From: an uncultured Candidatus Peribacteria bacterium
Lineage (GTDB): Bacteria; Patescibacteriota; Gracilibacteria; BD1-5; UBA2023
Direction: 5' to 3'
DNA: 43,696 nt
Assembly (NCBI GenBank): GCA_964430065.1
Contig: CAYSEP010000001.1
Location: 6,394 to 50,089 of the forward strand
Position 1 is the first letter of the stretch; every line of letters starts with the position of its first letter. The notes beneath the pieces were generated by a model that did not search any database, was not told the DNA's origin, and saw nothing but the letters and a program-made list of their open reading frames with translations. The position numbers and the translations under genes were made by a program. Below are positions 1,521 to 41,734 of the stretch, piece after piece.

Positions 1521-1650
1521 GTCATTTTCGTCATTTCGAGTGAGCCCTGTTTCTGTGGGCGACGAGAAATCTTCCATACAAGGTACCAGAATTTGAAGAT
1601 TTCTCTCTTGATTCATTACAGGAACAGATGAATCTCGCTCGAAATGACAA
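1521..1650. repeat. family-A palindromic mini-repeat (copy A1), long multi-hairpin form
   Basis: Termini gtcatttcgagtgag ... ctcgctcgaaatgac. Internal perfect inverted repeat gagaaatcttc/gaagatttctc, plus gattcat/atgaatc. Lies between the convergent pilin-like gene and dnaB. Confidence 0.7.
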
Positions 1651-1670
1651 TTTATAAATACCCACTAGAT

Positions 1671-3017
1671 CTACTCCCCATCGAAGTCCCCATCTCGAGC
1701 GCGCTCGATCTCGTAGAATTTCTGATGCTGTTTTTCGAACTTCAGATCGACTTGTCCTGTCGGTCCATTTCGGTTTTTTCGGATAAAAATATTCGTCACA
1801 TTCGGTGTCTCAGACATATCGTTGTAGTAGTCATCACGGTAGAGCATGAGGATGATATCGGCATCTTGTTCGATCGCACCAGACTCACGGAGATCTGACA
1901 TGATCGGTCGCTTATCGGGACGAGCTTCCAGGGCACGAGAGAGTTGCGAGAGAGCGATCACAGGAACATTGAGCTCACGTGCGAGCGACTTGAGTCCACG
2001 AGAAATCTCAGATACTTCCTGGACGCGATTGAAACTATTTCCACTCGAGATAAGCTGGAGATAGTCGATCACGATGAGATCGAGTCCAGATTCCATCTTG
2101 AGGCGACGTGCCTTCGACTTCAGTTCTAGGATACCCGCTCCAGCAGGGGAGTCATCGATGTATATTTTCGCTCGAGAAAGACGCTCGAGAGCATCACCCA
2201 TCTTCGCGAATTCATCTTCAGAAAGTTTTCCTTTCTGGAGTTTCCAGCTATCGACTGCCATACTCGCTGCGATCATACGATCGGTAAGTTGCTCTTTCGA
2301 CATTTCGAGGGAAAACACTGCCACATTTTTTCCTTTTTCTCCGACATTTTGCGCGAAGTTCATAGCGATAGCAGTCTTTCCCATAGAGGGACGAGCTGCC
2401 ACGATGATGAGGTCTCCCCGCTTGAATCCTCCGAGTTTGAAATCGAATCCCTCATATCCCGTCGAGACGCTATTCGCCTGAGAAAGTGTCGGATCGGCAT
2501 GAATCGCGGCGAACTCTTCGTATCGAGCATTGAGGATATCTTTGATATGGACGAGTTTATTCTGGATGAATGTCTGTGTCACAGAAAAGAGAGATTTTTC
2601 TGCTTTTTCGAGGAGTTCGTTTATCTCTGTCACCTCATCGAAACCAGCTTGTGTGATATCACTTCCCGATTTTATAAGCTTTCGAAGGACAGATTTATTT
2701 TTCACGATCTGCGCATACTGGAATATATTCGCACTCGTGAAGACTGCCGTCATGAGATCCGCGAGGAAGTTATCCCCACCGATAGATTCGAGTTTTTTCT
2801 GGTCGTCTATGACCTCGCGGACAGTGAGTGAGTCGATAGGACGATTGCGCGCATAGAGATCGAGCATCGCCGCATAGACGATACCGTGTGCAGGGTCGTA
2901 GAAATCTTCAGGAAGGAGCATGCTCGCAACCTGGATCATACCATCCTTATCGATAAGGATAGAACCGAGGACTCAGCGCTCAGCTTCGATGCTATGTGGA
3001 GGGGTGGAGAGAGACAA
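1671..3017 (-). CDS. dnaB: replicative DNA helicase DnaB
   Basis: Track ORF 1671..2939 carries the Walker A sequence GARPSMGKT and other DnaB motifs. Reading through TGA 2973-2975 restores the conserved N-terminus PPHSIEAERGVLGSILIDKDG. There is no ATG, so TTG at 3017 is the likely start (uncertain). Confidence 0.9.
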
Positions 3018-3048
3018 AGTTGAATAAATAATGAATAACTATAGTGTC

Positions 3049-3429
3049 TTATTTCCAATAATGAGGAAGCAAGTCCGAGAGAGGAAGCATATCATTTTTT
3101 CAGATATATACAAGTGTATTTTTATTATTCTGGTGTATTTGCATCATCATTTCTCTGCATCTTCCACAAGGAGCTACTACTTCACCAGTATCTCGTACAG
3201 CGATGATTTCCGATATTCCAGAGTGATCAGTTTTAAGCATTTCAGCAATAGCAGAATGTTCCGCACAAAATCCTACACTCGCAGAAAAATCCAAACACTT
3301 ACCCGTAAAAATATTTCCATCTTTCGTGATCAGTGCAGCTGAAACACCTCCGACACTCGCATATCAGGAAAGGATAATATCTTCACTTATAGCAAAAGCT
3401 TCTTTATATAAAGTATCAAAATGATTCAT
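3049..3429 (-). CDS. cdd: cytidine deaminase (small homotetrameric type)
   Basis: CAEHSAI and PCGRCRE zinc-ligand motifs. ATG at 3429, two in-frame TGA codons, TAA at 3049-3051, about 126 aa. Confidence 0.8.
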
Positions 3430-3443
3430 ATTTAACTAAACTT

Positions 3444-4787: not shown

Positions 4788-4922
4788 ATGATAGAAAAAA
4801 AAATGAAATTTGCAAACAGGAAAATATGTTTTTCGAGAGAGAAAAACTTTTTCGAAAAATTATTTGCTTTTCTTATTCATTATCATATAATCCACCGCGA
4901 TTTACTTATCAATTCTCTCCTC

Positions 4923-5276
4923 ATGGACGCTACTCTCATCGCCGCGATACAGGCAACTACATCACAAAAATCTGACGACACTCGCTACAAGACGGGTATG
5001 GAAGTCGAAGTTCACCAGATCATAAAAGACGGTGACAAGGAAAGAATACAGCTTTTCCGCGGACTTATCATCTCTATGAAAGGAAAAACTCAGCTCGATA
5101 AAGTTATCACTGTACGTGCTGATATCGACGGGATCGGTATCGAGAAGATTTTCCCGATCAATTCTCCGTTCATATCGAAGATCGTCGTACTTCGTCAGTT
5201 CAAGGTTCGTCGCAATAATATCGGATATATCCGTAACCTTACTGGTAAAGCAGCTCGTCTCAAAGAAATCAAGTAA
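4923..5276 (+). CDS. rplS: 50S ribosomal protein L19
   Basis: MDATLIAAIQ...KERIQLFRGLIISMKGK...RRNNIGYIRNLTGKAARLKE matches the L19 family. The upstream in-frame extension in the track overlaps the TPR gene and is not credible. No TGA codons. Confidence 0.9.
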   Translation: MDATLIAAIQATTSQKSDDTRYKTGMEVEVHQIIKDGDKERIQLFRGLIISMKGKTQLDKVITVRADIDGIGIEKIFPINSPFISKIVVLRQFKVRRNNIGYIRNLTGKAARLKEIK

Positions 5277-5294
5277 TTGTTCTACGGTTCTTTT

Positions 5295-5325
5295 AAAAAC
5301 TCCCCCATTTGGGGAGTTTTTCTTT
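5295..5325 (+). terminator. intrinsic terminator downstream of rplS
   Basis: aaaactcccc-attt-ggggagtttt hairpin followed by a T-rich run. Confidence 0.7.
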
Positions 5326-5362
5326 TCTTATAGTGAATGCTAAAAGATTTGCTAGTGTCAGT

Positions 5363-5440
5363 CCTCCTCTTATAGGGGAGGTAAGGAGGGGTACTTTCGT
5401 CTCGAATACCCCCTCTCACTCGCCCTACAAGGGGGAGAAT
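5363..5440. repeat. family-B G/C-hairpin mini-repeat (copy B1), intergenic
   Basis: cctcctcttataggggagg ... ccccctctcactcgccctacaagggggagaat. Colinear with copy B2 at 25705-25769 apart from a 12-nt insert. Confidence 0.7.
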
Positions 5441-5758
5441 TTGGAATCAGAGTATACAGACTTATGGAATAATTTCAGTATTTTATAGCACGCGAGAATC
5501 TCATTTCAGAGTAAAAAAGTTACTATAAATCTCTAAAAATTCTTCACATACTTCGGCTTGCTTTTTCCGTGAAGCAATGGTGAAGGGCGTTACTCATTTT
5601 TCCTGTATACATAGCGTGTTCGATATTCCTGTCAAATGATTTTTTTCTTTTGACTTCGCTTAAAAAAAGAATAAAAAGGCGTTCATAAATCCAGAGATAA
5701 AACAGTATTACAGAGCGTATAGTGAGTCCGTCAAGTTTCCATTTCTTTTGCTCTTCTC

Positions 5759-7183
5759 ATGTCACAGGTTTTCTCTTTTCTTCATCTCACAGAAGTTATC
5801 AAGTCTCTCTCAGTTTCTGTGCGTAAGCAAGATTTTCTTACATATTTTAAGAGATTTTCTCTCGTGTCTGCTACAGAAGATAGTATCACTCTCGGGGTAG
5901 TATCGTCATTTCACCGGGACAATCTCCTGAAGAAGTTCTATGATGAGATCAAAGAAACAGTACAGAAAGTCAATCCAGCAATAACTTCTCTCGATATCGT
6001 CGTCGATGATGAGATGGACAGGAAGTGAGAAGATCTTGTCGTCGACTGTAGAAATGCTCTCAAAGAAAGTGAAAAAACTACCAAAAAACAACAAGTCGAA
6101 TGAGTAGAAATCGTCGAAGGACTCAATAGTCGTCTCACGAGTGATAGATATAAGCTCGATAACTTCATCGTCGGTCCATCGACACAGCTCGCTCATGCAG
6201 CCTGTGAAGCGGTTGCTCGCCGTCCAGGAAGCTCATACAATCCGCTCTATCTCTATGGGAACGTCGGACTCGGGAAGACGCACCTTCTTCAGGCAAGTGC
6301 GAACACGATCCGCGAGAAGCACAAATGACTGAAGGTGATATATACGACGGCAGATAGATTTCTCTCTGACTATGTCGCGAGTATCAAGGGGCGTTCTATA
6401 GATAAACTCCGTGAAAAATACCGCCAGATCGATGTCCTCGTGATCGACGACGTCCAGTTCCTCTCAGGGAAAAAACAAACTCAAGAAGAGCTCTACAACA
6501 TCTTCAATATCCTCTACGAAGCAGGAAAGCAGATCATCCTCTCGGGAGATCGTCCGCCGAAAGAGCTCACTGAGCTCGAGCCACGACTGCAGAGTCGATT
6601 CGAGTGGGGGATCACGGTCGACCTCGGAGAACCAGACTACGAGACGCGTCTCGCGATCATCCAGGAGAAATCCCGTGCCAGAGAATTCATCCTCGACCAG
6701 GAAGTGGCAGAGTTCATCGCTGAGAATGTGACGACCAATGTCCGTGAACTCGAAGGTATACTCAACCAGATCATCGCAGAATACGATCTCAAGAATACTC
6801 CTCCCACTCTCGAAAATGTCGCATTTCGTCTCTCAAAACTCGCCGTCCGCTCTATCACGACGAGCCTCACAGAAAGTCGATGAGTCCGTACAGGAAACTG
6901 TAGTTACGAAGACCTCATCCAGGCTGTCTCTGGACACTTCGGTATCGAGATCCGTACACTCCTCTCAGAAGATCGCAAAAAAGAAAACATGATCCCTCGC
7001 CAAGTCGCGATGTATCTGCTAAAAAACCGACTTCACTACACCTACGAACGCATCGGGAATATATTCTCAGGGCGCAACCATACAGCAGTGATGTACTCAT
7101 GCAAGAAACTCGAACTCGTGATGAAAAAAGATCAGCAAGTTGTGTATGAAGTGAATGTGATACGGGATAAACTTGGAATTTAA
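5759..7183 (+). CDS. dnaA: chromosomal replication initiator DnaA
   Basis: Track pieces 5759..6028, 6335..6883 and 6989..7183 share one frame. The gaps contain only TGA (4 in total). The joined protein has the Walker A sequence [14 protein letters not shown], sensor motifs, and the domain IV sequence RQVAMYLLK...GRNHTAVMY. Confidence 0.95.
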
Positions 7184-8441: not shown

Positions 8442-11366
8442 ATGTCGATTTTAGTTTATTCTGAGTGAGACTCTGGGGTCGAGAAAATAAATGCAACAAA
8501 AGAGCAAAAACCTGACCACCTTTGATTAACAGCAGACGATTACTCTAGTTGTGCTTTTGCTATGGGTTTCGATAGGGAACGAGTAACTAAAACTCTAGAG
8601 TATTTTTCTAAATACCGCCAGGTAGCCGCAAGTCTCATGCATTTAGATATTGAATCTTCTACATTTTTAAACTCATTCCTTAGTTGCTTACTATTCGAAA
8701 GAGAACTAGTAGTACCAAGTGAAGATGTTGTAAATAAGATAAGAAACTGGATAGCATCGATTCCTGGTATTTGGGCGGTAAATGAGGATTTTCTTATTGC
8801 TATTGCAATGGAAAATCAAAAATCTTATCACACTCTTAGAGTATTACTTTTATTTGTAAACTTCTGGAGATTGCATCCAAAGTATATCTGAAGGTTAATT
8901 GGGGAAGACGAATATAGTAATAATTCAGAGAAAGGAATCGTACCTTTAACTCTAGCCAGTTCTGATTTCATAGCTCTTTCTAATATATATTTGGCTAAAT
9001 CAGATAATCTTAACTTTAGATCAACTACATGGTTTAATACGAGTGATGGGAATCGTCTCACTTACCATTTTAAGTGAAGATACTCTTCTCAAAAAAATAA
9101 AGATGTTGGCAAAGCCTTTCCTCACTATCGACATTTTTGTAAGATAGATTCTATAGGAGCACTCCGCGCATTGGAAGAATACATACTTGTTTGATGATTT
9201 TGACTACAAGAATCTGGTGATATACCTATTGATATACTTCGAGCTTTTATCAGAAAACATATTCTTCATATTGATACGATCATTGCTTTTTTAAACAAAA
9301 AATGAATAGATTTTTATTCATTGAATCAACTTACAAGAAAAGTTATTGAGGCAGAGAGAGGGAAAATTGCGTGAGGATCACCTACCCCTAAAAAAACAAA
9401 CCCATGAAAATTATGAAAACATACCTCAATCCTTCAGCCATCACGACCAATATATACTAGTAATGCAAATAATAGTAATACTGTAGACCCAAATACCAGA
9501 AACACAGTTCCAGAAAGCCATAAATATGAAGTTCCTATTTTTATCTGAAACGCAAAGAAATCTCTTATATCTTGACAATGATTTAATTGAACTAGAGAGA
9601 ACCTAGTAAGAGAGATCCCTTACTCCAAACTTACACTTTTATGGATTAGGGAGGATTGAGGTGAATGGATATCTCATGCAGGGTGAATTTCTATAAATCT
9701 CAACAAGAAGGATATTGGTTCATATGAATTCTGTTATACTCGTCCAGAAAATACTCCAGAAACGGAAAATAGTCCAGTGGAAAGAATACAAATCGAGCAA
9801 AAGAAAAATGTATGAAGTATCACAGATACTGTGCCGAAACAAGTTGCCGTGAACATCCCTGATCAGCCAAAACAAGAAGAAGAAAACCCACTCGATGCTA
9901 TCGCTCTGAATTTACTTTCGAAGATTGGAGAAGGTGCTTATGCTATTAATGAAGATGGTCTAGGAAATATCTCTCTGAGATTTTCGGATTGTGACTATGT
10001 TGCTCGTTGGTATAAGGAGCTTTCTATAGCAACGCTCTCTGGATGAGGAACGGAAAACGATCATGCATATCTTATAGACCTTCTTAGAAAAGAAATTACA
10101 AATGCATTTACCCAACATATGGCTCTAAAAAGAGAGAGAGAAGAGGCAGAAAAAACGCGTATACTGATTCAAGTAATGGGGAAGTTCACAGATATGATTA
10201 TAGCACTGAGCTGACCACATGATGTTCTAAATATAGAAACCCTCCTGAGAGCATCGAGGCACAACGACTATCATGCAGGGATTATTGCTACCAGAAATGG
10301 TTATAAGGAAAAAACGGATAAATTTTTAGTTGAGATGCGAAAACTCTGAGTTATCATAGAGTACGCTCGAGTAGACATATCATGAAAAAAGGACGAGAAG
10401 TGAAAAGAATTCTCCCTAAAAGTATATGCTCAAAGTGATCAAGAAAATATAGTTTCTATACACTCTACTCAGGATAACTATACTTTACAAGGCGGTATGG
10501 GAGACGAGAAACTTGCCGAGATTGCCAAAGCAGGTTTTGCACTCTTTGGACTCTTGGGAAGAAGAATTATAGAAGAGCCTCATTCTAGCCAAGTAAAGAA
10601 ATGAGAAACTAAACCAACAGTAAGTGACGTACTCGGTGGAAACTATAAAAAACCTCGGACAATCTTTACTCAGCTTGAGAAAGGTGAACAAGATACCATT
10701 CGAGATTTGATAAAGCGACTCGATGAATGAAGGGGGAAAATATCAAAAGGTGCTTATGTAAATTATGAGATAGGTTTTCTAGATCATCAAATATCCAGTA
10801 GAAAAGGCTGGCAAGATATCCAAGATTGAGATATGCTTGTCCTTCGAGATGAATCTATCAGGGCCGAGAGTAGTGAACATACTAAACCAAATCCAGAAGT
10901 ATACGATCTCCTTGAAGTGAGTGAACATTTTCAGAAGTACATGCTCCTCAGGTGGGTAAGTACTATAACAGATATAGAAGGTATATCCCTTCCTCAGTAC
11001 AAAAGACAAAAATCACCATTCCAGAATTGAGCACTTGAATTTTTTCGAGCATTTTGGTTCTCACTCTCAGAAGAAAAAAGAAACGAATTCAAGAACAATA
11101 TCGGACTAGATCCAAATACAGAAAAGCTATCACCGACAACATGACTCAGGACTATGTACGATGAATGAAGAACTCTCTTTCATCACTTCATGTATCTCAT
11201 TCGAAGGGGGCGAGAAAATGCTATCACTTACCAGGAGGGTAGTGAAAGGAAAATATACCAACAGAGGTGACCTATTCCACTCATATATACACGACCGAGT
11301 CTTATAACTCAAGAAGATCTTAGAGAATATCGACAAGAAATTGCACAAAACACATGAAATCACTAA
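8442..11366 (+). CDS. large orphan protein (974 aa) of unknown function
   Basis: I read frame 0 line by line from ATG 8442 to TAA 11364-11366. There is no TAA or TAG in 974 codons of AT-rich DNA, and 31 TGA codons. Track ORFs 8562..8891, 9831..10046 and 10833..11030 are pieces of it. No domain recognised. Confidence 0.7.
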
Positions 11367-12992: not shown

Positions 12993-13054
12993 ATATTTGC
13001 AAAAAATAAAGAAATGTGAGAGAATAAATTACAATAAAATTTATTCTTACCCTT

Positions 13055-15806: not shown

Positions 15807-15850
15807 GAGCGTATTATAGCGAGAAGGAGAAAAAAGACAAAACAGTTTCC

Positions 15851-27002: not shown

Positions 27003-27572
27003 ATGCTCGTGGAAGCGATCGCGAAAGCGAAATCCTGAGATAGAGATGCTCTCGGCACCCTCTATGATGCCTCATATGATCGAGTTTATCGTATGCTTTT
27101 TCACCGTACGCTCGATGTCGCCTTCACAGAAGATGTCATCTCAGACGTGTACATGAAGGTCGTAAAAGGTATAGAAAAATTCGTAGGATCGACAGAAGGG
27201 GAGTACTTCTCCTGGGTACTCCGCATCGCCTACACGACACTCATCGACTCACTCCGTCATGAGAAGCCGATCGACTCTCTCGATGACATCGAATGGGAAC
27301 CGAGTGAATCTGTAGATTTCGGGGAAATAGTCGACCATAAAGAGAAACTCACCGAAGTCCTCTCCTACATGGATACTCTTCCAGAACGAGATCGCATGAT
27401 CGTCACACTCCGTATCTGGGATGACCTCTCCTACGACGAAATAGCAGAGATCACTGGAGAGTCAGTATCAAATAGTAAAAAAATCGTCTCTCGATCTCTC
27501 GAGAAAATCGCTGCCAACGTCTCACCCCTCGCGCTCATAGCATTCATCTCTACTCATGTCTTCACACGCTAA
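27003..27572 (+). CDS. ECF-type RNA polymerase sigma factor
   Basis: Region 2 (DVISDVYMKVVKGIEKF...FSWVLRIAYTTLIDSLR) and region 4 (LPERDRMIVTLRIWDDLSYDEIAEITGESVSNSKKIVSRSLEKI). One TGA near the N-terminus. Confidence 0.85.
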
Positions 27573-28488: not shown

Positions 28489-28538
28489 GAACTCTATTTT
28501 CAGAAATAGATTTGACTTATTTATAAAAAAGTATATAG

Positions 28539-29444: not shown

Positions 29445-29460
29445 AAAAAACAATTATATA

Positions 29461-29488
29461 AAAACCTCACCAATTTGGTGAGGTTTTT
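29461..29488 (+). terminator. intrinsic terminator
   Basis: aaaacctcacc-aatt-tggtgaggtttt. Confidence 0.65.
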
Positions 29489-29519
29489 ATAGTATTTGAA
29501 CTTGGGCGAACTTTTTCCT

Positions 29520-29583
29520 GTCATCCCGGTGAATACCGGGATCCAGAGATTCTGAACTGGATTCTGGCATACGCCAGAATGAC
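29520..29583. repeat. family-A mini-repeat (copy A6, 64 bp; the clearest two-hairpin form)
   Basis: gtc [atcccggt gaat accgggat] c cagagattctgaactgg [attctggc atac gccagaat] gac. Located downstream of gdh. Confidence 0.8.
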
Positions 29584-29618
29584 AGAAACAGGTTGCGAAC
29601 GATGTAACCAAATACGTA

Positions 29619-30959
<1,341 letters not shown>

Positions 30960-31016
30960 TTAGGAAAAATCAAATAATAGTGAGAATTATTCTCATATAA
31001 AAGTATTGCTATTCAC

Positions 31017-32390
31017 TTATTTTGATTTTTTGAGATTCTTCGCGACGATCTTCAGAGACTTCTCGAGTGCTTTGAGTCCTCGATCGATCTCATCATAACT
31101 GATGATAATAGGTGGCTCGATACGAGAAGTAAGAGCACTGTTCAGTGTACCAGCTATCAGGACACCATGCTTGAAGAGCTCGGCGGTGACCTGGTATCCG
31201 ATCTCTGCAGAGCGGAAGTGCTGAGCGATAAGGAGTCACTTCCCACTCACAGACTCATAGATTTCTGGATACTCTTTCACGAGTTTTTGGAGTTTTTTCA
31301 TGAGATAGACTCACTTCTCCTCTGCCATCTTCGGGAAGTCATCTCGGAGAGCGATATGGAGACCTGCGATCGCTGCAGAGCAGGCGAGGGCTCATCCCCC
31401 TGTCGTCGTGGTGTGTATGAAAGGATTCGGATGCATCATGCATTGCCAGATTTTTTCTGTCGAGACAAAAGCCGATATCGGCATGACACCACCACCGAGA
31501 GCTTTTCCCATCGTCATGATATCAGGAACGACTCCCCAGTGATCGACTCACCACATCTTCCCCGTACGTCCGATGCCTGTCTGAACTTCGTCAGCTATGA
31601 GAAGGACGCCATGTTTCGTCGTCGCGGCTCGGATGCGCGGCCAGAAATCATCAGGTGGGACGACCGCACCTGCTTCTCACTGGATCGGTTCCATCATGAC
31701 AGCCGCGATACCGACTCCGACGGTTTCACATATTTCTAATTGTCTCTCTACAGCCTCAGCATCACCATAGGGGACATGATAGACTGGTCATCCATAGAGT
31801 TGTCCGACAGGTTCTCGATAGTCTTTTTTCCCGATCATAGAAAGCGATCCCATCGTCTTTCCGTGGAATCCTTTCACCGCGACGATGAATCCTGCTTTTT
31901 TCGTATACATCTTCGCGAGTTTGATCGCTCATTCATTGGCTTCTGTGCCACTTCATGCGAAGAAAGCGTATTTCAGATCTCCTGGAGTAATCTCAGCAAG
32001 CATACGAGCGAGCACGCCACGGAGAGGGTCGATGAGCTCTTGCGATGGCATAGGGTTATGGAGAAGCTGTGACTGAACTGCCTCGATAACTTCAGGATGT
32101 GACCATCCATGAGAAAGCAGTCCGTAGCCTCCGAGCCAGTCGATATATTTGCGTCCGTAGACATCTTCGATAGTAGATCATCTCCCTTTCCACTCGATAG
32201 CCGCATGATCTCCTGCCAGCGTGACAGATTTTCTATATTCGAGCCATCATTCATTGAAGTGTTCATGGAAGTTATGCAACGACTCTTCTGCGATCCAGTT
32301 GGCTTCCTCGAGGGTTGGTGTTTGTTTTTCTTTGATGATTTCGAGCCACTTGTGACTATAGGCGAGGACAGATTTTTTGGATGCTTTCAT
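31017..32390 (-). CDS. patA: class III PLP-dependent aminotransferase, putrescine aminotransferase (YgjG/PatA)-like
   Basis: I read the frame line by line: 457 codons, 10 TGA, no TAA or TAG. The motifs EYRKSV, SGTEANE, EPIQ[TGA]EAG, DEVQTGIGRTGKMW, the sequence GKALGGGVMPI, HTTTTGG and RIEPPI resemble E. coli YgjG as I remember it. Confidence 0.8.
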
Positions 32391-32547
32391 ATGTATATGA
32401 GTGTTGGATAGAGAAATTATAAGGGAGAAAGATTACGTACAGATTAGGTTCGGCGAGATACTTCTAATCATAAAACTCGTATATCATGGTAGCATAATAG
32501 CTCTCAAAATACAAAAATCTGGGCTTGCCCTATTTCTTACCTATGTT

Positions 32548-32580
32548 AAAATTCCCTCTCCATTGCTGGAAGGGGAATTT
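32548..32580 (-). terminator. hairpin downstream of tRNA-Trp
   Basis: aaattcccct ... agagggaatttt on the minus strand. The sequence is loosely related to family-B hairpins. Confidence 0.45.
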
Positions 32581-32605
32581 CTATGATAAAGGGAATTTTG
32601 ATGAA

Positions 32606-32680
32606 TGGCAGCCCCGCTCAGAATCGAACTGAGGTTCTCGGCTTTGGAGACCGATGTACTAACCGCTGTACGACAGGGCT
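32606..32680 (-). tRNA. tRNA-Trp (anticodon CCA), 3' CCA encoded
   Basis: Folded by hand. Acceptor AGCCCTG/CGGGGCT, D-stem GTAC/GTAC, anticodon stem TCGGT/GCCGA with loop CTCCAAA, and T-arm CTCAG-TTCGATT-CTGAG. Confidence 0.9.
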
Positions 32681-32713
32681 ACATCTCCTAGGAAAAACCT
32701 AGGAAGAGGAAGA

Positions 32714-33502
32714 CTAGATAGAGTATCGATAGAATTTTACTACTGCATCTTTTCCGATAAAATCACCAACTTTCATATCAGGATTGACGACAAATGGTTG
32801 CGTAAGGAGAGCATTCTCTTCACGGAATTTTGTCATTTTTCCATCGATGATTTTCTCGAGGATTTCTGCAGGTTTGCTTGCATTTTTCGGATCTTGTTTC
32901 ATGATCTCGAGTTGGATTTCTTTCTCTTTTGCCACGACCTCATCGGAGATGTCAGTAGGAGAGGTAACCTGTGGAGCAGAAGCAACGACGTGCATAGCGA
33001 CTTGCTTGAGTTTATCAGCATCAGTCCCAGATTTTGCGACGACGACAGATCCGTTCTTAAAGTTCGAATGGACATAGCTTGCTATGACATCACCTTCGAT
33101 CTTCGTGAGTGCTTGGATGACCATGTTCTCACCGACTTTGAGTGTGTATTCACTTGCTTTGAGTTCATCAGCCTGGTCAATAGCTTCAGCGTCTGAGTCA
33201 GAGTTCTGACGGATAGAGATGAAATGATCGAGCATCGCATCGAATGTCTCGTTGCGAGCGACGAAGTCAGTCTCACAAGAAACGACTGCTACATAGGTAG
33301 CACCACCTTCTGTGACGATCTTGATTTTTCCTTCGCTTGTCTCGTTTCCAGAGCGTTTCGCAGCCTTCGCGAGACCCTTCTTACGGAGAAGGTCGATCGC
33401 AATCTCGAGGTCACCATTGGCTTCGACGAGTGCATTTTTACAGTCAGACATACCGACTCCTGTTCTTTCACGGAGTTCTTTTATCATTTGAGGGGTTACC
33501 AT
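32714..33502 (-). CDS. tsf: translation elongation factor Ts
   Basis: The N-terminal UBA-like sequence MIKELRERTGVGMSDCKNAL. 262-aa intact ORF with no TGA codons. Confidence 0.95.
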   Translation of the reverse strand: MVTPQMIKELRERTGVGMSDCKNALVEANGDLEIAIDLLRKKGLAKAAKRSGNETSEGKIKIVTEGGATYVAVVSCETDFVARNETFDAMLDHFISIRQNSDSDAEAIDQADELKASEYTLKVGENMVIQALTKIEGDVIASYVHSNFKNGSVVVAKSGTDADKLKQVAMHVVASAPQVTSPTDISDEVVAKEKEIQLEIMKQDPKNASKPAEILEKIIDGKMTKFREENALLTQPFVVNPDMKVGDFIGKDAVVKFYRYSI

Positions 33503-33529
33503 AGTGAGGATAATTTATAAATTAAATTT

Positions 33530-33593
33530 GTCATTCTCTGAGTCGAAAATCTGTACCTTTTTTTGAAAGGGATCCTCGCAAGGCGAGAATGAC
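33530..33593. repeat. family-A mini-repeat (copy A8, 64 bp) inside the rpsB-tsf operon
   Basis: gtcattctctgagtcgaaaatc ... atcctcgcaaggcgagaatgac. Confidence 0.75.
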
Positions 33594-33603
33594 AAAACAG
33601 GAA

Positions 33604-33984
33604 CTACTTTCCAGGAGTAAACATATTCGAGATACCAAGAGCCTGGATGAGCTTCTCTGCATTTTCGAGGAGAAATGGTATCGCAAATTCTTTTCCGTTA
33701 AATGCCTGCACCGCAAGGAAGAGGGAAGTGAGGAAAAGTGCAAGGTTCACCAATCATCCAAGTCCGTATATCCAAATAAAGGAAAGAGCGATCGCAAGAA
33801 TGACAGATGCAACATTGATGATAAATCCCTGTTTCATATATTTCACGACAAATGAAGTTTTCACATTCATAAGAAGTGGCACAAAGAAGAGGAACGATGC
33901 GAGAGCTGCAGCGAGTTTTTCCTGGCTAGATACGACTGGAGAAGTAGGAGTTTCCATAAGAGAAAAAGTAAAAAATAGAAACAA
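33604..33984 (-). CDS. small multi-pass membrane protein (DUF4870-like)
   Basis: Three hydrophobic helices, one TGA, TAG at 33604-33606. The start is either 33984 or the ATG at 33957. Confidence 0.5.
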
Positions 33985-34020
33985 AGCGAGGGATATATAT
34001 TTCTTTTTATGAGATATGTA

Positions 34021-34824
34021 TTACGCTTCTACGGTTTCAGTTTTTTCAGGAGTTTCTTCTGTTTTCACAGTACGAGCCATAGGAGTTTTTGGAGCGAGTT
34101 TCTCTGTTTTTGCTGGTGCTGAAGCGAGAGGTTTCTTATCATCAGACTTGCGAGCCTTGATAGACGACTTGAGTTCACCGAGGATGAATGCAAGAGCCTT
34201 GATCGAGTTTACATTGCATGGAACGAAGTAGTCAGTCTTATCGATATCACCAGTAGAACCGAGGAGAGCGATAGTAGTGACACCCATAGTATGAGCTTCT
34301 GTAAGAGCAAGATCTTCGTAGTGACCATCGACGACCACGACGACATCTGGAGCGCGTTTCATGTCTTTCACACCGACATATGCCGTCTTGAGTTTCTCGA
34401 GTTCCTTCATTTTTACTGATACTTCTTTCTTCGTAAGTCCTTCGAGCATCCCGTTTGCGAGAGATGATTCGAGTTCGTTATAGTAGCTGATTCGTTTTTT
34501 GATCGTTCCGAAATTCGTGAGGAGTCCTGGAACCCACTTCGAACTGACATAGAAATGTCCTGTAGCGATAGCAAGAGCTTCGACGAGATCCTTAGTCTGA
34601 ACCTTCGTTCCGACGAAAAGGATAGTCTTTCCACGAGAAGAAAGATCTTCCAGAAGAGCTTTCACTTCAGTGAGCTTTTCTGCAGTTTTATAAAGGTCGA
34701 ATACATGGATACCATTCTGGACACCATAGATGTAGTTACGCATCTTTGGAGACCAGTATTCACGCTTGTGTCCGATGTGGACGGCGTTTTCGAGCATGCT
34801 CTGTACGAGAGTAGCGTTTGACAT
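34021..34824 (-). CDS. rpsB: 30S ribosomal protein S2
   Basis: The sequence LENAVHIGHKREYWSPKM and other S2 motifs. 267 aa with no TGA codons. Confidence 0.95.
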   Translation of the reverse strand: MSNATLVQSMLENAVHIGHKREYWSPKMRNYIYGVQNGIHVFDLYKTAEKLTEVKALLEDLSSRGKTILFVGTKVQTKDLVEALAIATGHFYVSSKWVPGLLTNFGTIKKRISYYNELESSLANGMLEGLTKKEVSVKMKELEKLKTAYVGVKDMKRAPDVVVVVDGHYEDLALTEAHTMGVTTIALLGSTGDIDKTDYFVPCNVNSIKALAFILGELKSSIKARKSDDKKPLASAPAKTEKLAPKTPMARTVKTEETPEKTETVEA

Positions 34825-34980
34825 AGAAAAAAATAATAAAAAAATAATCCTTACGAGATCTTAGGTCAGATACGTAGTCCTTCGTAGCTCTGTTTATCCT
34901 TCGTAGCTCGGAAAGAGTGGAGAAGGAAAAGGAGCGGAGAAGGAAGGAAGTATCCTTGTGCTCAGGAACATACATCCCTG

Positions 34981-35030
34981 AAAAACAAAAAATCCCAACT
35001 CGATCTTTCATTTTCCGAAAGTGAGTCGGG
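34981..35030 (-). terminator. intrinsic terminator between the small ORF and rpsB
   Basis: Minus strand: cccgactcactttcggaaaatgaaagatcgagttggg, followed by attttttgttttt. Confidence 0.55.
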
Positions 35031-35082
35031 CGTATTATAGCGAAAATCAGGAAAAAGCAAGGCTATTTATTGGGATTTCACA

Positions 35083-35328
35083 CTAATCATCAGCTGTTGT
35101 ATCTTTTAATGTTCGTGCCATACATTCAGCAACTACCTTACTCCAATCAGCTATTTCTCTCGTTGTCATAGGTACTCATGATGTGTGAGGATTACCAGCA
35201 TAATCAACTGATGCATCAGAGAAATTTGCCTCCTGAACTGGTCACCATAATACAGGCGGTGACGGAAGTCAAAAACCTTTGAGCTGATCCTCATCTGAGC
35301 AAGTTCATCCGTATGATATTTCTAGCAT
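35083..35328 (-). CDS. hypothetical small protein (81 aa)
   Basis: ATG at 35328 to TAG at 35083-35085, with 4 TGA and no TAA or TAG in frame. Confidence 0.35.
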
Positions 35329-35382
35329 AAATTTTTTATTACAAGTAAAAATTATTATACTACTATTAATTATTTGTCAATT

Positions 35383-36852
35383 TTATTTTACTCATTCATA
35401 TCACTTTCCTCAGATCCATTTATAAAGCATTTGTCCTGCGACGAAACCTATGATCGCCATGAGGAATCCGAAGAAGTGTGGAGGCATAGAGTATACTTCC
35501 TCGAATCCGAGAGAGTACTCGAATGTCAGCCATGTCCCGATACCTACGATCATAGAGAGGAGAGCAGAGATGGTGTGGACTTTTTTACAGATGAGTGCCA
35601 TAGCAAGTGGGACGAAGGCTCAGGCAAGAGTGATCTTGTAGGCATTTTCTACCATTTCGAATATACGAGCCTCTTCCTGATAGTATTTGTATGAGACGAA
35701 GCTCACGATGATGAGAAAAAATCCGATCACTGAAGCTCGAGTCATGAAGAGTGCCTTACGATCAGAAATACGAGGAAGAAATGGGCGAAGGATATTTTCC
35801 ATGAAGAGTGCCGATGGCGCAAGAAGCGTCCCCGATGCTGTCGACATGATGGCTGAGAGTAGAGCTCAGAAGAACATGACTTGCACAAAAAGAGGGGTAG
35901 CCTCGAGGATAAGTATAGGGAGGACTCGCTGAGTATCGCTTGTTCCTGTGATGAGATCGGGAGCTACCATATACGCTGCATAGCCGAGCATGATCGGGAG
36001 AAATGCTATGATGATATAGAGTGATCATCAGAGAATTCATCATTTTCGAGCATGCTCTCGGGAATCTGCCGAAAGCACTCTCTGAAAGACATCTTGCTGT
36101 GGTATAGAACCAAATCCCATGGTCAGTACAGCAGATATGATCCCTATGATAGCGACAAGTGAGAATCCATCTGGAAGAAGGTCGAACTTCCCAGCACTAT
36201 ATGCCTCAGAGATGACATGCGTCATGCCACCAGCACCAGGAAGCGATGTGACGAAAAAACTCGCGATAGCCATACCCACAACGATGATGATCATCTGGAA
36301 AAAATCTGTGAGTGCCACAGACCACATCCCTCAGAAAAATGTATAGAGAAGAACGATGAATCCGCCGATCAGTGACCACTGCATCTGTGAGAGAAAAGCA
36401 AGACTCGATCCCTCTGTGAGTATATCTCCGATGAGTCCGAGTGCGACGATCTGTGCCGATACCCACCCGATATAGGATACGATGATCATGATCGAAGCGA
36501 GGAGCTCTACGGTACGGCCGTATTTCATACGATAGTAGTCTCCGAGCGTCTTCACTCAGGCATCGTAGAGAGGTCGTGCGAAGAAAAGTCAGACGAGGAT
36601 AAGACAGAGTCCAGCACCAAATGGATCTGCGAGGATGCCCAGAATCCCTTCATCGAGAAATGTCGATGACGTCCCGAGTACTGTCTCAGAGCCAAACCAT
36701 GTGGCGAAAGTCGTCGCGATGACGATATAGAGGGGAAGTCCGCGTCATGCGAGAATATAGTCTGTATCCGTCTTCACTCGACGCGAAGCATAGAGTCCTA
36801 TACCTATAGAAATGATGAGATAGAGCCCGATCCAGAAGAGAAGTGAGTTCAT
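35383..36852 (-). CDS. sodium:solute symporter (SSS) family transporter
   Basis: All four track pieces on this strand share one frame. I read that frame line by line: 489 codons and about 13 TGA. Typical SSS features include the sequences FATWFGSETVLG and GSIPQQDVFQR and multiple TM helices. Confidence 0.8.
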
Positions 36853-36955
36853 AGAAAAATTTATGATAAAAAATACTCTTACCAAATATTCTAGAGGATT
36901 TAGGAGAAATGCAAGAAAATATCCTTACTATAAAAGCATAGAATCGAAAATGAAA

Positions 36956-36984
36956 TTGACAATTATTATTAATTAATATATAAT
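36956..36984 (+). promoter_or_regulatory. perfect consensus sigma70 promoter TTGACA-N17-TATAAT
   Basis: TTGACA at 36956-36961 and TATAAT at 36979-36984. The ATG of the downstream gene is at 36991, only 6 nt after the -10 element. Confidence 0.55.
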
Positions 36985-36990
36985 AACCAC

Positions 36991-37719
36991 ATGCGACAAA
37001 TGCCCTCTGGAAAAGAATATACATGACCGAAAGCCGTAACCTCTGCAACACTCAGTGAAATACAAAGAAATGCGGAGCAACTTGACGTAAAATGAGTGCA
37101 TGATGCGCTTATGAAGTTTAATAGCATAAATTTTACTACCCTTGATGAGAAGGTGAATACTATAGAAATGATGGCCCTCTATCAACAAGCCTTCACACTC
37201 CTAGGAACACCTCTAAAAGTAGACTGATTTTTTGGTGGAGCAACACGCGTAGCAGTCAAAAAATTCCAAGAAAAAAATGGGTTAGTGGGCGATGGAATAC
37301 CGTGACAAAAAACGACAGAAACACTACTGAGAAAACTTTCAGAAAAATGATTATCGAGTAATCCTATGAAAGAGGTTATGAAGAATTTGGAAATCACTCC
37401 TGAAGATAATAAAAATGTCGTACGTATAATAAAAGAGGCACGAAAGAATCCACTTCCTGGAAGTAATCAGTATTCGAGTTACTCAGGGAACAATTTCGAC
37501 AATATAGAATACGCCTATGTAAAACAGCCTGATGGGTGATATTATGTTTTCGGTGAGAGATCTACAGATACTCCAGTATGGAGATATGTTTACCAGACTG
37601 ATAAAGATTTTAATATTCTCGATGTAGCAAAAGTAGAAGGTGGCGGAAAAATCTCTTCCCGTAAGTGAAAAATACTTGAGGTGCCATTTAATCCTGCTCC
37701 CGTAATTAAGAAAAAATAA
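36991..37719 (+). CDS. peptidoglycan-binding-domain protein
   Basis: 242 codons with 7 TGA. PG_binding_1-like segment YQQAFTLLGTPLKVD[TGA]FFGGATRVAVKKFQEKNGLVGDGIP[TGA]QKT, with both TGA codons at the family's conserved Gly positions. Confidence 0.65.
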
Positions 37720-38420
37720 TGTCTATCAAGAATTTCATACAAGCAGCAGGCGTGGTTGCTGGTCTCGCCACAAGCCCCATATCTCACGCTTGAGATATTT
37801 TCGAACCACAAATAGTAGAAATAAAAGAAGTGTGCACATGAAAAGTCTCAGTCATACTCGGTGGGAAAAATATATGTGAGCTATCAAGTAAGGAAGTCGT
37901 AGAGATATCACAAGATGGAGGAAAGACCTGGAAGATATTATGAGTGGGAAGTATACTCGCACTCGACCTCGCTATATGACTCTGAGTTTTGATTCGATCG
38001 AGAAGAAAGATATGACAAGGTCCTGGAATAGGAATAGATATAGAAGGGAGTGAGTCAAACGAATTAGTAGAACTTACGTATATTATCGAGGAGAGTCCTG
38101 CAGAGAAAATAGATGTAGCCAAGAAGCGAATAGAGGAGTTTTTTGAGGGTAATAATATTTTTGAAGATAAATGATCCTGCTATCTCCTAACTTTTCAGGT
38201 TGATCCAGGAAAAGAATCAGCAAGTGAGGCATATCACTCATATCAGATAATCATAGAGAAATGATCGTGAAAAATCTCTTTCTTTAAGGTGTATCCTAAC
38301 TTCTCTTGGTTCGACAATCAAAGAAAATGGAATGATAACAAAAATTCCGAGGGCACAATTCTCGAAAGTGTATGCTTACAACTCGAATTAATGAAGCTTT
38401 ATAATACTAAGTTCATATAA
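37719..38420 (+). CDS. secreted hypothetical protein
   Basis: TAATG overlap with the upstream gene. 233 codons with 9 TGA. Signal-peptide-like MSIKNFIQAAGVVAGLATSPISHA. Confidence 0.5.
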
Positions 38421-38434
38421 AAAATAATCACGCT

Positions 38435-38467
38435 AAAGACAAGTTTCTCTTGTCTTTTTTTGTTTTT
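38435..38467 (+). terminator. intrinsic terminator
   Basis: aaagacaag-tttct-cttgtcttt followed by a T-run. Confidence 0.65.
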
Positions 38468-38504
38468 TCGTAGAATACGGGAAGTCAGAACTTTACTGAA
38501 GCTT

Positions 38505-38954
38505 ATGGACTATACACGTATTTTCACAGATATACTCACATGAGATCACTATCTCGTACTTGCGACCGTAGACGATGAATGAAATCCATGGACAGCACCA
38601 CTGGGATATGTATGGGACGGAGGGCGATCACTCTACTATATATCTCATACTGGGTCAGTTCACTCGAAAAATATCGAAACAAATCCTAAGATAGGTTTTA
38701 GTATATTTCATACGGATCAGATACCAGGAAATGCTTTCTGAGTGCAGTGATCCGGAATAGCCGAAAGAGTAAGCGAAGAAACTGTTCCGAGAGAACTTCA
38801 GGAAAAACTTCAGAAACTTGTTTCTCTCGTCATCCTCCAGAGAGAACACTCTTTCTATAGAATAGATATCGTCGATGCATTTCTCCCCGATGCTACTCGC
38901 TGGAAAACTGATGGGAAAATAAAAACACGAGTAGAACTTCCTAATAAATCATAA
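38505..38954 (+). CDS. pyridoxamine 5'-phosphate oxidase-family (general stress protein 26-like) flavin-binding protein
   Basis: LATVDDE[TGA]NPW (family consensus dG-P), then HSKNIETNPKIGFSIF. 149 codons with 4 TGA. Confidence 0.55.
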
Positions 38955-38958
38955 TAAA

Positions 38959-40392
38959 ATGCCAAAAGAATACGAACTTATCATGTGACTCGAGACCCAC
39001 GTCCGAGTGAAGTCGAACACCAAGATGTTCTGTAGCTGTGCGAATGCTCTCGAGCTCGCAAAAGAACCAAATATGAATGTCTGTCCTATCTGTATGGGAT
39101 TTCCTGGGATGCTTCCGACACTTTCCGCAGGAGTCGTCGATCTCGCTGTACGTGCTGGTCATGCGATGCGTGGGCAAGTGCAGGAAAAAAGTATATTCGA
39201 CCGCAAGAGCTATTTCTACCCAGATCTTCCTATGGGATACCAGATTACTCAGCTCTATGAGCCGATCGTGATGGGCGGGGAAGTGCGTGCGATGGTCGAA
39301 GGTGAGGTGAAGACATTTCGCATACACCATACCCATATCGAGAACGATGCAGGAAAGCTCGTCCATGCAGGAGGGAAGACTCTCTGTGACTATAACCGTG
39401 CAGGATCACCACTTATGGAGATCGTGACGGAGCCAGATTTCCGATCGAAAGCAGATGTGATAGGCTATCTCGAAGAGCTCCAGAAGCTCATGCGTTGGTG
39501 TGGTGCGAGTGACGCTGACATGGAGAAGTGACAGCTTCGCTGTGATGTGAATATCTCTGTTCGTGAGAAGTGAGAGACTCAGTTCCGTAATCGTGTGGAA
39601 CTGAAAAATATCAACTCATTTGCCTCTATCGCTCGTGCGATAGACGTCGAGTACGCTCGCCAGGTCGAGATCTACGAGACTGGTGGAACGATCGACCAGG
39701 AAACTCGAGGATGGAGCGATGAACGTGGATACTCGACTCCACTCCGGTCAAAGGAAGATGCCATGGACTACCGCTACTTCCCAGATCCAGATCTCCCACC
39801 ACTTATCCTCACACGTGAGTATATCGAAGAGAGAAATATCGGAGAACTCCCCATGGATCGCCGACTCAAGTATAGAGATACATACAAGCTCATCGAAGAT
39901 GACGCGCGCATACTTTCGAGTGATCGGCTCACAAGTGATTTCTATGAGTCTCTTGTAGCGACATCGGGCGATCCGAAAAAGTCGTGTTCCTATATCACGA
40001 CGGTACTCTTCGCGATATTCGAAGCGCACCATGAGAAGATCGATCTCTCCCACGTGAAGGGCTGAGCTCTCGAGATCGGAAATGTCATCAAGCTCGTAAA
40101 TGCAGACGCACTATCGAGTACGAACTCGAAACTCGTCGTAGAAAAACTCGTCTTCGAAGGAGGAACTGCAGAAGAGTGGGTCGAGAAACTCGGACTTCGC
40201 CAGTCCAATGACACGAGCGCACTCGAAGCGATCGTCGACCAAGTCATCGTGGACAATGCTTCCCAAGTCGCGGAGTACAAATCTGGAAAAGAGGCACTCT
40301 TCGGCTTCTTCGTCGGACAATCTATGAAAGCCTCGAAATGACAGGGAAATCCGAAAATATTCACAGACATACTCAAGAAAAAACTCTCCTAA
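38959..40392 (+). CDS. gatB: Asp-tRNA(Asn)/Glu-tRNA(Gln) amidotransferase subunit B
   Basis: M[TGA]LETHV (family consensus IGLEIH), the sequence CPICMGFPGMLP, ME[K][TGA]QLRCDVNISV and YRYFPDPDLPP. Track pieces are in frame. 5 TGA. Confidence 0.95.
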
Positions 40393-40847
40393 GGTTTAGG
40401 AGAGTTTTCTCATAATCAATTATGATATTCACTTACTGCATTCAGAAAGGCTGAAAATGTAACAGGTAAACGAATGCCTAACTTATTCATATTCTCTGAA
40501 TAATATTCGCAAAGTAAAGTGATCTCTCGTTTTTTTCACCAATGTTGAAAAAATGGAGCTACCAATCATTGATTTTCGGACAAACATTCCATACGATTCA
40601 CGCCATCCTTAGCAAGAAAATTTCTGACAAAATCAGCGATTTGACTAGGCACATCTTTCTTTATTTCTTGATTTTTTTTCTGCTCTTCAATAACTGATGC
40701 TACAAAACCTTTTACATAATCCTCTACCCCCTTTCCTTTGGTTTCCCATGGGTCAACAACCTTAGGAAATTCTTGAGGTTTTTGAAATTTAAAATTGTGA
40801 GGAGAAGGAATATCGCCTCTAGATGTATCATTATTAATTCAAGTCAT
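40389..40847 (-). CDS. hypothetical protein (152 aa)
   Basis: ATG at 40847 to TAG at 40389-40391, with 5 TGA and no TAA or TAG in frame. The last 9 codons run through the gatB terminator and overlap the gatB stop. Confidence 0.4.
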
Positions 40848-40903
40848 GAGTATGATATATCCAATAATTTGCAAAAGTCAATAATTTATGTTAAAATACT
40901 CTC

Positions 40904-41701
40904 ATGAAAAAACTTATTTCTCTCATCTTCATTTTTCTCTTGCTCACCGAGCATGTATGAGCATTAAATATGCTGAAACCGAGCCTCACAGCTCAGATGA
41001 ACAGACAGGCGAGTATAGATAAAGTGAACTATATAACAGAGAAAAAACTCAAGAACCAACTCAGACTCGCAGAGATCCAGGCACGCAGAAAGGTAGGGAT
41101 AAAAACCACAGTAGCCAGCACTACGCCAAATACTACAACTTCCTCAGTAAAGCCTGTCTATACAGCTCCTTCGAACACCAATACAACATACTCAGTCTCA
41201 TCCTCGATCCCATGAGTCGATATGAATCGTGTCCGAGCAACGTGGATGGGCTGGTACAATAGTACGAGAAGTGCTCTCTCACTCCAAAACTATACATGGG
41301 ATACTCGACTTGATGGAACCGCTCATGACTGGAATATCGTATTTGCAGCAGGGAAGGGGCAAAATCACCATAGACGCAATCCAGGAGACAGCTACTATGA
41401 TTTCCCTGTGATCGATGCATGGTTCGGTGCTCGTGGAGTGAATCCGAAAGTGATAAATAGAGCAAAAAATACTGAGAATGTCGGCTATGGATACTACTCA
41501 TGTAGCGACTCGGACTGTACCGATGAGCTCATCGCGAGTATCCGCTCTACCTATGACTTCTTCATGAGCGAGAAGGGGAAATCCTATGATGCTCACTACC
41601 GCAGTATCGTACAGCCATACTTCTCGAAGATCGGGATGGATATCATAGTCGTACCGAGCGAGAAACGATACTATATGACCATCCACTATATCACGGAATA
41701 G
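40904..41701 (+). CDS. secreted CAP/SCP/PR-1-like domain protein
   Basis: Signal peptide, Thr/Ser-rich linker, and a C-terminal domain of about 150 aa with the spacing typical of SCP-like extracellular proteins (W..R...L.W...L...A, HY..IV). 2 TGA. Confidence 0.5.
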
Positions 41702-41709
41702 ACTGTCTC

Positions 41710-41734
41710 GTCATTCCTGCGAAGGCAGGAATCC
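41710..41734. repeat. family-A short hairpin (copy A9), intergenic
   Basis: gtc attcctgc gaag gcaggaat cc. Confidence 0.75.

Follow-up and report, generated by a model that had tools for sequence, protein, structure and literature searches.

The stretch analyzed here, hereafter the window, is a 43.7-kb segment of contig CAYSEP010000001.1 with a G+C content of 42%, in which housekeeping genes are interspersed with short DNA hairpins of one dispersed, REP-like repeat family (REP, repetitive extragenic palindrome). Reading both strands, we count 15 hairpin units at nine loci, arranged as six inverted dimers and three single units. The density is one unit per 2.9 kb and, scaled from it, a genome of ~1 Mb would hold a few hundred copies. 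The repeats belong to a known family, the CGTC-1 REPs, described elsewhere as dRS3, as the Neisseria Transformation Sequence (NTS), as the Ssn-related motif (SRM) and as Rickettsia palindromic element 6 (RPE-6); their host lineage and genetic code are new. We consider it likely that the units are CGTC-tagged repetitive palindromes, the canonical ones being CGTC-1, and that the same element has colonized this genome.

The genes around the repeats follow a non-standard code. Long open reading frame (ORF) coverage of the window rises from 24 kb to 97 kb once TGA is not counted as a stop. The closest relatives of its glutamate dehydrogenase (GDH) and of its HI0933-like flavoprotein are proteins named Candidatus Gracilibacteria, and database entries translated under code 4 show tryptophan at the expected conserved glycines of both enzymes, the codons for these glycines being TGA. 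Because TGA is a sense codon, conserved glycines appear as tryptophan and the closest relatives are Candidatus Gracilibacteria, we conclude that the host is a Gracilibacterium in which TGA is read as glycine (code 25). The gene map used throughout was made under this code; a table-11 ORF list is misleading as to coding regions. Pfam searches identified ordinary housekeeping genes, including dnaA, dnaB, gltX, gatB, rpsB, tsf, a sigma factor and PPK2.

Each unit is an oriented hairpin of ~28 nt. Its 5' tag, (C/T)GTC, is unpaired; a stem that opens with A-T followed by T-A encloses the loop, and the 3' tail starts with C. The initial annotation, whose nine loci we recovered at the same positions, took a 64-bp GTCAT...ATGAC element as the basic unit. 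We find that the GTCAT...ATGAC elements are inverted dimers of the ~28-nt single hairpin, three of them exactly 64 bp long as it had counted (25290-25353, 29520-29583 and 33530-33593). All six dimers (64-130 bp) are inverted, with tags pointing outward and tails inward, and none is head-to-tail; the two halves usually differ in their stems and thus form heterodimers. TGTC is the tag in 10 of the 15 units and CGTC in the other 5, and all 15 stems open with AT. Four units combine an exact 8-bp stem with a 4-nt loop (29519+, 29584-, 30306- and 41709+). We refer to these as canonical; their tail is CCAG, and the remaining units keep the first C, followed by T, C or G. A fifth unit (15850+) has the canonical stem with a 50-nt loop, and the other ten have stems of 5-9 bp, G.A mismatches or other loop lengths. 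Two or three of the window units form a subtype with tandem G.A mismatches, TGTCATTYCGAG...CGAGRAATCT, which we also saw in Nitrospirota, Dehalococcoidia and a Nanoarchaeota metagenome-assembled genome (MAG). The stem cores re-read identically to the first description (CCCGGT/ACCGGG, TCTGGC/GCCAGA, TCCTGC/GCAGGA and TCTCC/GGAGA). The proposal that selection acts on structure rather than on sequence holds for the variable yet complementary stems and fails for three parts that are conserved in sequence: the tag, the AT at the base of the stem and the C that starts the tail.

The family exceeds chance expectation. A rule requiring GTCAT, at least 5 Watson-Crick pairs starting from the A, a loop no longer than 14 nt and then C finds 12 sites in the window; 300 shuffles that preserve dinucleotides give a mean of 0.66 sites and at most 4. 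By itself, the heptamer GTCATYC shows no enrichment in the window (22 against 15.3 expected); the repeat signal resides in the combination of tag, hairpin and tail. Chance probably accounts for two of the 12 sites, 27269-27287 and 42186-42213; the former lies inside the sigma-factor gene, and a near-identical sequence is present in the sigma-factor gene of the relative L122. Folded as single-stranded DNA (ssDNA), the canonical units give z = -4.2 to -5.6, and the dimers 29519-29584, 25289-25354, 24965-25042 and 1520-1651 give z = -3.4 to -5.5. Two dimers fold weakly, 33529-33594 at z = -2.4 and 17498-17602 at z = -1.3. Some units fold unconvincingly when taken alone, namely the left one of 33529-33594, the right one of 17498-17602 and both of 25289-25354.

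The code-25 map upholds the placements first described for the repeats, namely after convergent genes, in a ribosomal-protein cluster and inside coding sequences. Two loci lie between convergent genes. The first (1529-1649) is an inverted dimer with tags outward, of a 'CGAG...CGAG' subtype with long loops, located between the convergent ends of a plus-strand gene (576-1499) and dnaB (1671-3017, minus strand). Its left unit (1529-1574, plus) reads CGTCATTTCGAG...CGAGAAATCTTC and its right unit (~1595-1649, minus) TGTCATTTCGAGCGAG...GAGAAATCTTC; a partial extra tag, GTCATTTTC, lies beside it at 1521-1529, and as ssDNA 1520-1651 folds with -26.7 kcal/mol (z = -5.3). The second is the 64-bp inverted dimer 29519-29584, which pairs two canonical units, TGTCATCCCGGTGAATACCGGGATCCAG (29519-29546, plus) and TGTCATTCTGGCGTATGCCAGAATCCAG (29557-29584, minus), and folds with -18.9 kcal/mol (z = -5.5). 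It adjoins a distinct terminator-like hairpin at 29457-29491 and is absent from the relative L121.

Between divergent genes, a histidine-kinase gene (14502-15806, minus) and gltX (16009-17475, plus), lies the single unit CGTCATTCCTGC-(50 nt)-GCAGGAATCTCG (15850-15920, plus), with a canonical 8-bp stem. Its loop (15862-15911) holds a nested insertion of ~46 nt with CCCC/GGGG ends, while its ortholog in L122 (12826-12853) is CTTCATTCCTGCGGAGGCAGGAATCTCG, with an ordinary 4-nt loop. This comparison of a filled with a plain loop suggests that the hairpin loops may themselves be targets of insertion. Two further loci lie between tandem genes. Downstream of gltX is a weak inverted dimer (17498-17602), whose left unit TGTCATGCCGTAGGCATC (17498-17515, plus) is kept in L122 (11238-11254) and whose right unit is TGTCATTTCGTAGCGTAGCGGAGAAATC (17575-17602, minus). 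The other is a single canonical unit, CGTCATTCCTGCGAAGGCAGGAATCCAG (41709-41736, plus; ssDNA hairpin -7.7 kcal/mol, z = -4.75), placed 8 nt past the stop codon of a plus-strand gene (40904-41701). Within the rpsB-tsf cluster, the 64-bp inverted dimer 33529-33594 lies downstream of rpsB, between a gene for a 117-aa protein (33604-33957, minus) and tsf (32714-33502, minus); its right unit TGTCATTCTCGCCTTGCGAGGATC (33570-33594, minus) is recognizable and its left unit (33529-33552, plus) degenerate.

The remaining three loci lie within coding sequences, so that 5 of the 15 units are in frame inside two genes. The GDH gene (29619-30917, minus) holds a single canonical unit (30279-30306, minus), which is identical to 41709-41736 across all 28 nt and encodes VIPAKAGIQ. 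The closest GDH ortholog, P0001 (91% identity), lacks the unit, and the DNA alignment shows +30 nt in the window gene and is otherwise colinear. In L206, the GDH gene carries a decayed orthologous copy at the same flanks (CGTCATTGCGAAGAATGAAACAATCCAG), and many other Gracilibacteria GDHs hold unrelated insertions at this position. The flavoprotein gene (24369-25835, minus) holds two inverted dimers in frame. One, 24965-25042, spans residues 271-296 (LSFSVGESLSGIPNDRKRSSAIAKDD) and comprises a left unit (24965-24991, plus) with a 9-bp stem including one G.T pair and a right unit (25021-25042, minus) with a 7-bp stem. The other, the 64-bp dimer 25289-25354, spans residues 167-188 (LSSGGTKDLLENQADSSQTRND) and comprises a left unit of the 'CGAG' subtype (25289-25313, plus) and a right unit (25331-25354, minus); its composite fold has z = -4.5 and its reading frame includes a TGA (Gly).

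Comparison with relatives reveals both filled and empty sites. Relative to P0122, P0123, L121 and L122, the flavoprotein dimers add 22-27 and 25-26 residues. Dimer 24965-25042 is absent from the orthologs P0122 and P0123 (84% identity), from the DNA of both L121 and L122, and from the insertion-free flavoproteins of ~411 aa; some of these orthologs lack dimer 25289-25354 as well. Dimer 25289-25354 is absent from L121 and P0123, and L122 holds a homologous dimer at the same site, so the L121 flavoprotein gene is without either dimer. In addition, L122 carries a canonical unit inside a ferric-reductase/rubredoxin gene. Copies are thus gained or lost among genomes that are 85-90% identical in nucleotides.

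In Gracilibacteria alignments, inserts recur at GDH positions ~215-230 and 295-305 and at flavoprotein positions ~23-45, 165-190 and 265-297, and flavoprotein orthologs range from 411 to 739 aa. By these alignments, the positions are insertion hot spots that accommodate many unrelated inserts across Gracilibacteria. We also observed a second, G/C-rich hairpin-repeat family, CCCC...GGGG, at 25706-25765, 30046-30073 and 5409-5435. Its 27-mer CCCCCTCTCACTC(G/C)CCCTA(C/A)AAGGGGG precedes dnaA and also stands in frame within the flavoprotein gene. Related hairpins encode SPPFRGS, PPLQGEE and LPLDKGG within the flavoprotein and GDH, and the GDH copy is common to two orthologs (LPLEKGGRGDF).

The anatomy of the window units matches two published descriptions. 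The NTS, CGTCATTCCCGCGMAVGCGGGAATCYRG, includes the dRS3 repeat, and its generalized form is the SRM (PMC11893778, Nat Commun 2025). SsnA, a 94-aa GIY-YIG protein, binds and cuts the NTS hairpin exclusively as ssDNA and in a single orientation; cleavage by Ssn needs the GTC before the palindrome, and binding needs the C after it (PMC11893778). The CGTC-1 REP is defined by a CGTC or TGTC tag, an 8-bp stem starting with AT, a 4-nt loop and a CCA tail (Di Nocera et al. 2013, PMC3733652). According to the same survey, CGTC-1 REPs are mostly dimers with a negligible share of head-to-tail pairs, their intragenic dimers encode 20-30 aa, and they are equated with Neisseria dRS3 and with RPE-6 of R. 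conorii. Both CGTCATTCCTGCGAAGGCAGGAATCCAG units of the window (41709-41736, plus; 30279-30306, minus) are identical to the NTS consensus at 26 of 28 positions, and the two mismatches form one compensatory pair, C-G to T-A. The published SRM pattern matches 24965+, 29519+ and 29557-, against 0.1 matches expected from 100 shuffles, and the CGTCATTCCTGCGAAGGCAGGAATCCAG copies miss it solely through the T in CCTGC.

To place the family more widely, we scanned one genome per species with the 26-nt free-loop pattern CGTCATTCCTGCNNNNGCAGGAATCC. The pattern matches at least 120 loci; those listed span more than 12 phyla, among them Patescibacteria, Peregrinibacteria and a Nanoarchaeota MAG. An Ssn-like GIY-YIG ORF is present at 5 of these listed loci, and a profile built from four of the encoded proteins retrieved 80 ssn loci from metagenomes, 42 of which were parsed automatically. 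A tagged hairpin lies within 400 bp of ssn in 35 of the 42 parsed loci, and on both sides in 21. The arrangement there, unit(+) - ssn - unit(-), is the tags-outward geometry of the window dimers. From the ssn loci came 93 distinct perfect units, in which 25 different stems are represented. The window stem ATTCCTGC ranks second in frequency among these stems, and ATTCTGGC is often seen too; the loop found most often is GAAG, 68 of the units have the tail CCAG, and both TGTC and CGTC tags occur. As a side observation, Ssn-like GIY-YIG proteins from Thermotogota, Gemmatimonadota, Kiritimatiellae and Desulfobacterota share 75-96% mutual identity over their full 95 residues; such unusually high identity across phyla suggests frequent horizontal transfer.

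Membership was also scored with a covariance model, R1, built from 25 hairpins beside ssn genes on unrelated metagenome contigs and including no window sequence. The external model was used because a MAFFT alignment of the window units misplaced their 3' arms. Under R1 the four canonical units reach 35-47 bits (E between 5e-11 and 1e-7): 46.8 bits (E = 5e-11) for both 30279-30306 and 41709-41736, 39.6 bits (E = 6e-9) for 29519-29546, and 35.3 bits (E = 1e-7) for 29557-29584. In the reverse orientation, the canonical units score at most 9.4 bits. By sequence and structure, these four are unambiguous members of the CGTC-1/NTS family.

We weighed four other accounts of the repeats. The first regards them as RNA-level hairpins, that is, terminators, mRNA stabilizers or processing sites maintained by selection locus by locus, and not as mobile or nuclease-linked DNA. 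Several units do sit just past stop codons or between convergent genes, and many REPs have been argued to be transcribed (PMC3733652). Yet no unit precedes a T-run, and a terminator scan of 24000-43696 flagged none of them, although it did detect the separate hairpin 29457-29491 beside the 29519 dimer. A gathering-threshold Rfam scan of the window returned tRNA-Trp only, with no match at the repeats. Furthermore, five units lie within ORFs, presence and absence vary between close relatives, and a local RNA role leaves unexplained why an oriented tag and a first tail C are conserved across phyla. We therefore regard this account as unlikely, while a secondary effect of the units on transcripts is possible. 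Separately, perfect hairpins with A/T flanks and stems of 10-16 bp stand at gene ends at 29457-29491, 23854-23880, 40380-40408, 5295-5321 and 13021-13047; these resemble bidirectional intrinsic terminators and have no relation to the CGTC family.

It is very unlikely that the units are primarily attachment or target sites of an IS110-family recombinase or of a filamentous phage, as reported for Neisseria dRS3. The precedent is real, in that the dRS3 core is a documented phage-recombinase target in Neisseria according to work cited in PMC11893778, and the foreign ~46-nt insertion sits exactly in the loop of unit 15850-15920. However, Pfam revealed no IS110 or phage gene in the window, and what is nested in the loop is a small hairpin rich in G/C, not an insertion sequence. 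Target-site function would explain insertions into units, not the multiplication of the units. Such a role is compatible with the assignment to the CGTC family rather than an alternative to it.

The initial annotation had pointed to a RAYT/IS200-like or other mobilizing enzyme as the candidate partner; the former corresponds to REPs or REPINs (inverted REP doublets) mobilized by a REP-associated tyrosine transposase (RAYT) of the IS200/IS605 type. The two systems look alike, with short palindromes, inverted doublets that hold no gene but resemble the borders of the enzyme gene, intergenic sites after genes and hundreds of copies per genome. In sharp contrast to the GTAG tag typical of RAYT-associated REPs, all 15 window units carry (C/T)GTC, and the enzyme is an HUH tyrosine transposase in one system and a GIY-YIG nuclease in the other. 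The 2013 survey found no RAYT or IS200 gene flanked by CGTC repeats in any species, and no association of these repeats with other transposases (PMC3733652), and in our sampled ssn loci the hairpins flank GIY-YIG genes. Consistent with the earlier remark that the window lacks a mobilizing gene, Pfam detected no HUH or transposase domain in it. A RAYT may lie elsewhere in the genome, but we find RAYT mobilization of these units highly improbable; the cognate enzyme of the family is the GIY-YIG nuclease Ssn (PMC11893778).

Least credible is a classical miniature inverted-repeat transposable element (MITE), a 64-130 bp GTCAT...ATGAC mobile unit with terminal inverted repeats moved by a DDE transposase, since the inverted pairs with matching termini at six of the nine loci and the 64-bp length shared by three are outweighed by three loci that hold single units without a partner (two of them identical), by the same single unit recurring in more than 12 phyla among the matches listed, by the lack of a target-site duplication at any of the six dimers, where TTT...AAA flanks prolong the palindrome instead, and by heterodimers that misfit copying from one 64-bp master element.

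We return to the reading of the units as CGTC-tagged palindromes akin to those of Ssn systems. In other bacteria, an Ssn protein of ~95 aa with a GIY-YIG domain binds the hairpin solely as ssDNA and in one orientation and cuts just upstream of it, and its gene is typically bracketed by two hairpins with tags outward. The host Gracilibacterium would have been colonized by the same element, which would persist as single units and as gene-less inverted dimers. In these dimers the layout of the ssn cassette would be reproduced, a relation comparable to that between REPINs and RAYT genes. Copies come and go over the divergence between relatives that are 85-90% identical in nucleotides. Those inside genes may survive through their short length, through landing in variable protein stretches that also take other insertions in Gracilibacteria, and because the sole stop they tend to bring, TGA, encodes glycine here. 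The data show family membership in sequence and structure, how the dimers are built, the in-frame inserts and which relatives hold or lack copies. We infer an Ssn-type nuclease in this genome because the family to which the hairpins belong is linked to one; that this nuclease acts on the copies, and how they spread, is likewise inferred.

Several results weigh against this reading. Outside the four canonical units, R1 gives the other 11 at most 12 bits, which is not significant (for example, 10.4 bits and E = 1.3 for 33570-33594); these divergent units may be other CGTC subfamilies or decaying copies. No ssn or GIY-YIG gene was found in the 43.7-kb window by phmmer, a motif regular expression or Pfam; the phmmer comparison of an Ssn homolog with all six-frame ORFs, under codes 11 and 25, gave no match. 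No TGA-recoded contig occurs among the 80 metagenome ssn loci. The best 120 Ssn homologs retrieved with a low-GC Ssn query come from other phyla only, with no Gracilibacteria-named protein among them. Among the metagenome ssn loci, L125 and L176 were considered as TGA-recoded and rejected as merely repeat-rich. Finally, no unit lies in two other stretches of Gracilibacteria, L121 (11 kb) and L207 (21 kb), and the expansion is therefore specific to a lineage and not general to Gracilibacteria.

The stop codons of the repeats bear on how they are tolerated within genes. A canonical unit has a stop in one of its six frames, namely TGA, and 87 of the 93 ssn-linked units likewise have a stop in one frame only, again TGA. 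In the three 64-bp dimers, TAA or TAG occurs in none of the six frames and TGA in 3-4 frames, so that all six frames are open because code 25 reads TGA as glycine; the in-frame TGA of one dimer is indeed read through, giving LSS-G-G. It is plausible that code 25 contributes to the high intragenic share of the units (5 of 15, against 2% in N. meningitidis). Still, code 25 is not required for intragenic copies, because Rickettsia tolerates such inserts under the standard code. A bolder proposal, which we advance only tentatively and consider rather unlikely, is that the CGTC/NTS hairpins and, by implication, an Ssn-type nuclease are active in Gracilibacteria. Because TGA is the one stop that the invariant tag of the element (GTCA/TGAC) and its stems are prone to form, recoding it to glycine would let the element remodel variable loop regions of housekeeping proteins unusually fast. 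Gracilibacteria episymbionts are thought to depend on DNA uptake. By analogy with Neisseria transformation, one may speculate that an Ssn/NTS pair polices incoming ssDNA while the host takes up DNA.

Other features of the window are recorded here. In 4788-7183, gene orientation changes from the minus to the plus strand near 4.8 kb, where the AT skew also changes sign, and dnaA (5759-7183) is preceded by a 480-bp intergenic region; this region may be the replication origin. The GC skew of the window is uninformative and provides no usable replication-strand signal for an analysis of repeat orientation. A 974-aa ORF at 8442-11366 has no Pfam match, and the sizeable ORFs 21043-22467, 41829-43574 and 27556-28488 are likewise without a recognizable domain. 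The Logan contigs L204 (SRR13208906) and L205 (SRR13208889), found via tsf, are 100% and 99.97% identical to window positions 30538-34260 and 32256-35588, so at least two more public sequencing runs contain this strain. Both contigs are short and hold no polymorphism information.

The window repeats share features with three described systems and depart from each. Two units carry the same 28 nt as the NTS save one compensatory pair, with the same hairpin fold, the GTC tag, the C after the palindrome and the tags-outward geometry that brackets ssn genes. They differ in their host, a Gracilibacterium of the candidate phyla radiation using code 25, in which ssn is a predicted gene, and in the intragenic share, about one third of the units compared with the 2% reported for N. 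meningitidis. The main text of PMC11893778 mentions neither 'Gracilibacteria' nor 'Patescibacteria'. With CGTC-1 REPs (PMC3733652), they share the tag, the 8-bp AT stem, the 4-nt loop, the CCA tail, the predominance of inverted dimers, often heterodimers, and sites after genes and sometimes inside them, whereas many window units depart from the 8/4 format, with stems of 5-9 bp, G.A mismatches and long loops. The five phyla of that survey include none from the candidate phyla radiation. Like Rickettsia palindromic elements, of which RPE-4 and RPE-6 are CGTC repeats (PMC3733652), the intragenic copies are in-frame inserts of 9-27 residues at variable sites, absent from orthologs, that leave the genes open. 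The comparison with these elements is by published description; the host lineage and genetic code differ, and RPE-1 is much longer.

A very widespread bacterial hairpin repeat (dRS3/NTS/CGTC-REP) is hereby placed in a recoded lineage of the candidate phyla radiation, with clean comparisons of filled and empty sites for in-frame insertions in two housekeeping enzymes. The assignment predicts that this reduced genome encodes an Ssn protein of ~95 aa with a GIY-YIG domain, its gene bracketed by these hairpins. For annotators of Gracilibacteria, peptides such as VIPAKAGIQ inside real proteins are repeat-derived and not conserved motifs. Dimers that are free of stops only under code 25 offer a small but concrete lead on how recoding relates to the tolerance of selfish DNA. 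If the proposal of fast loop remodeling were true, it would tie a change of genetic code to that tolerance.

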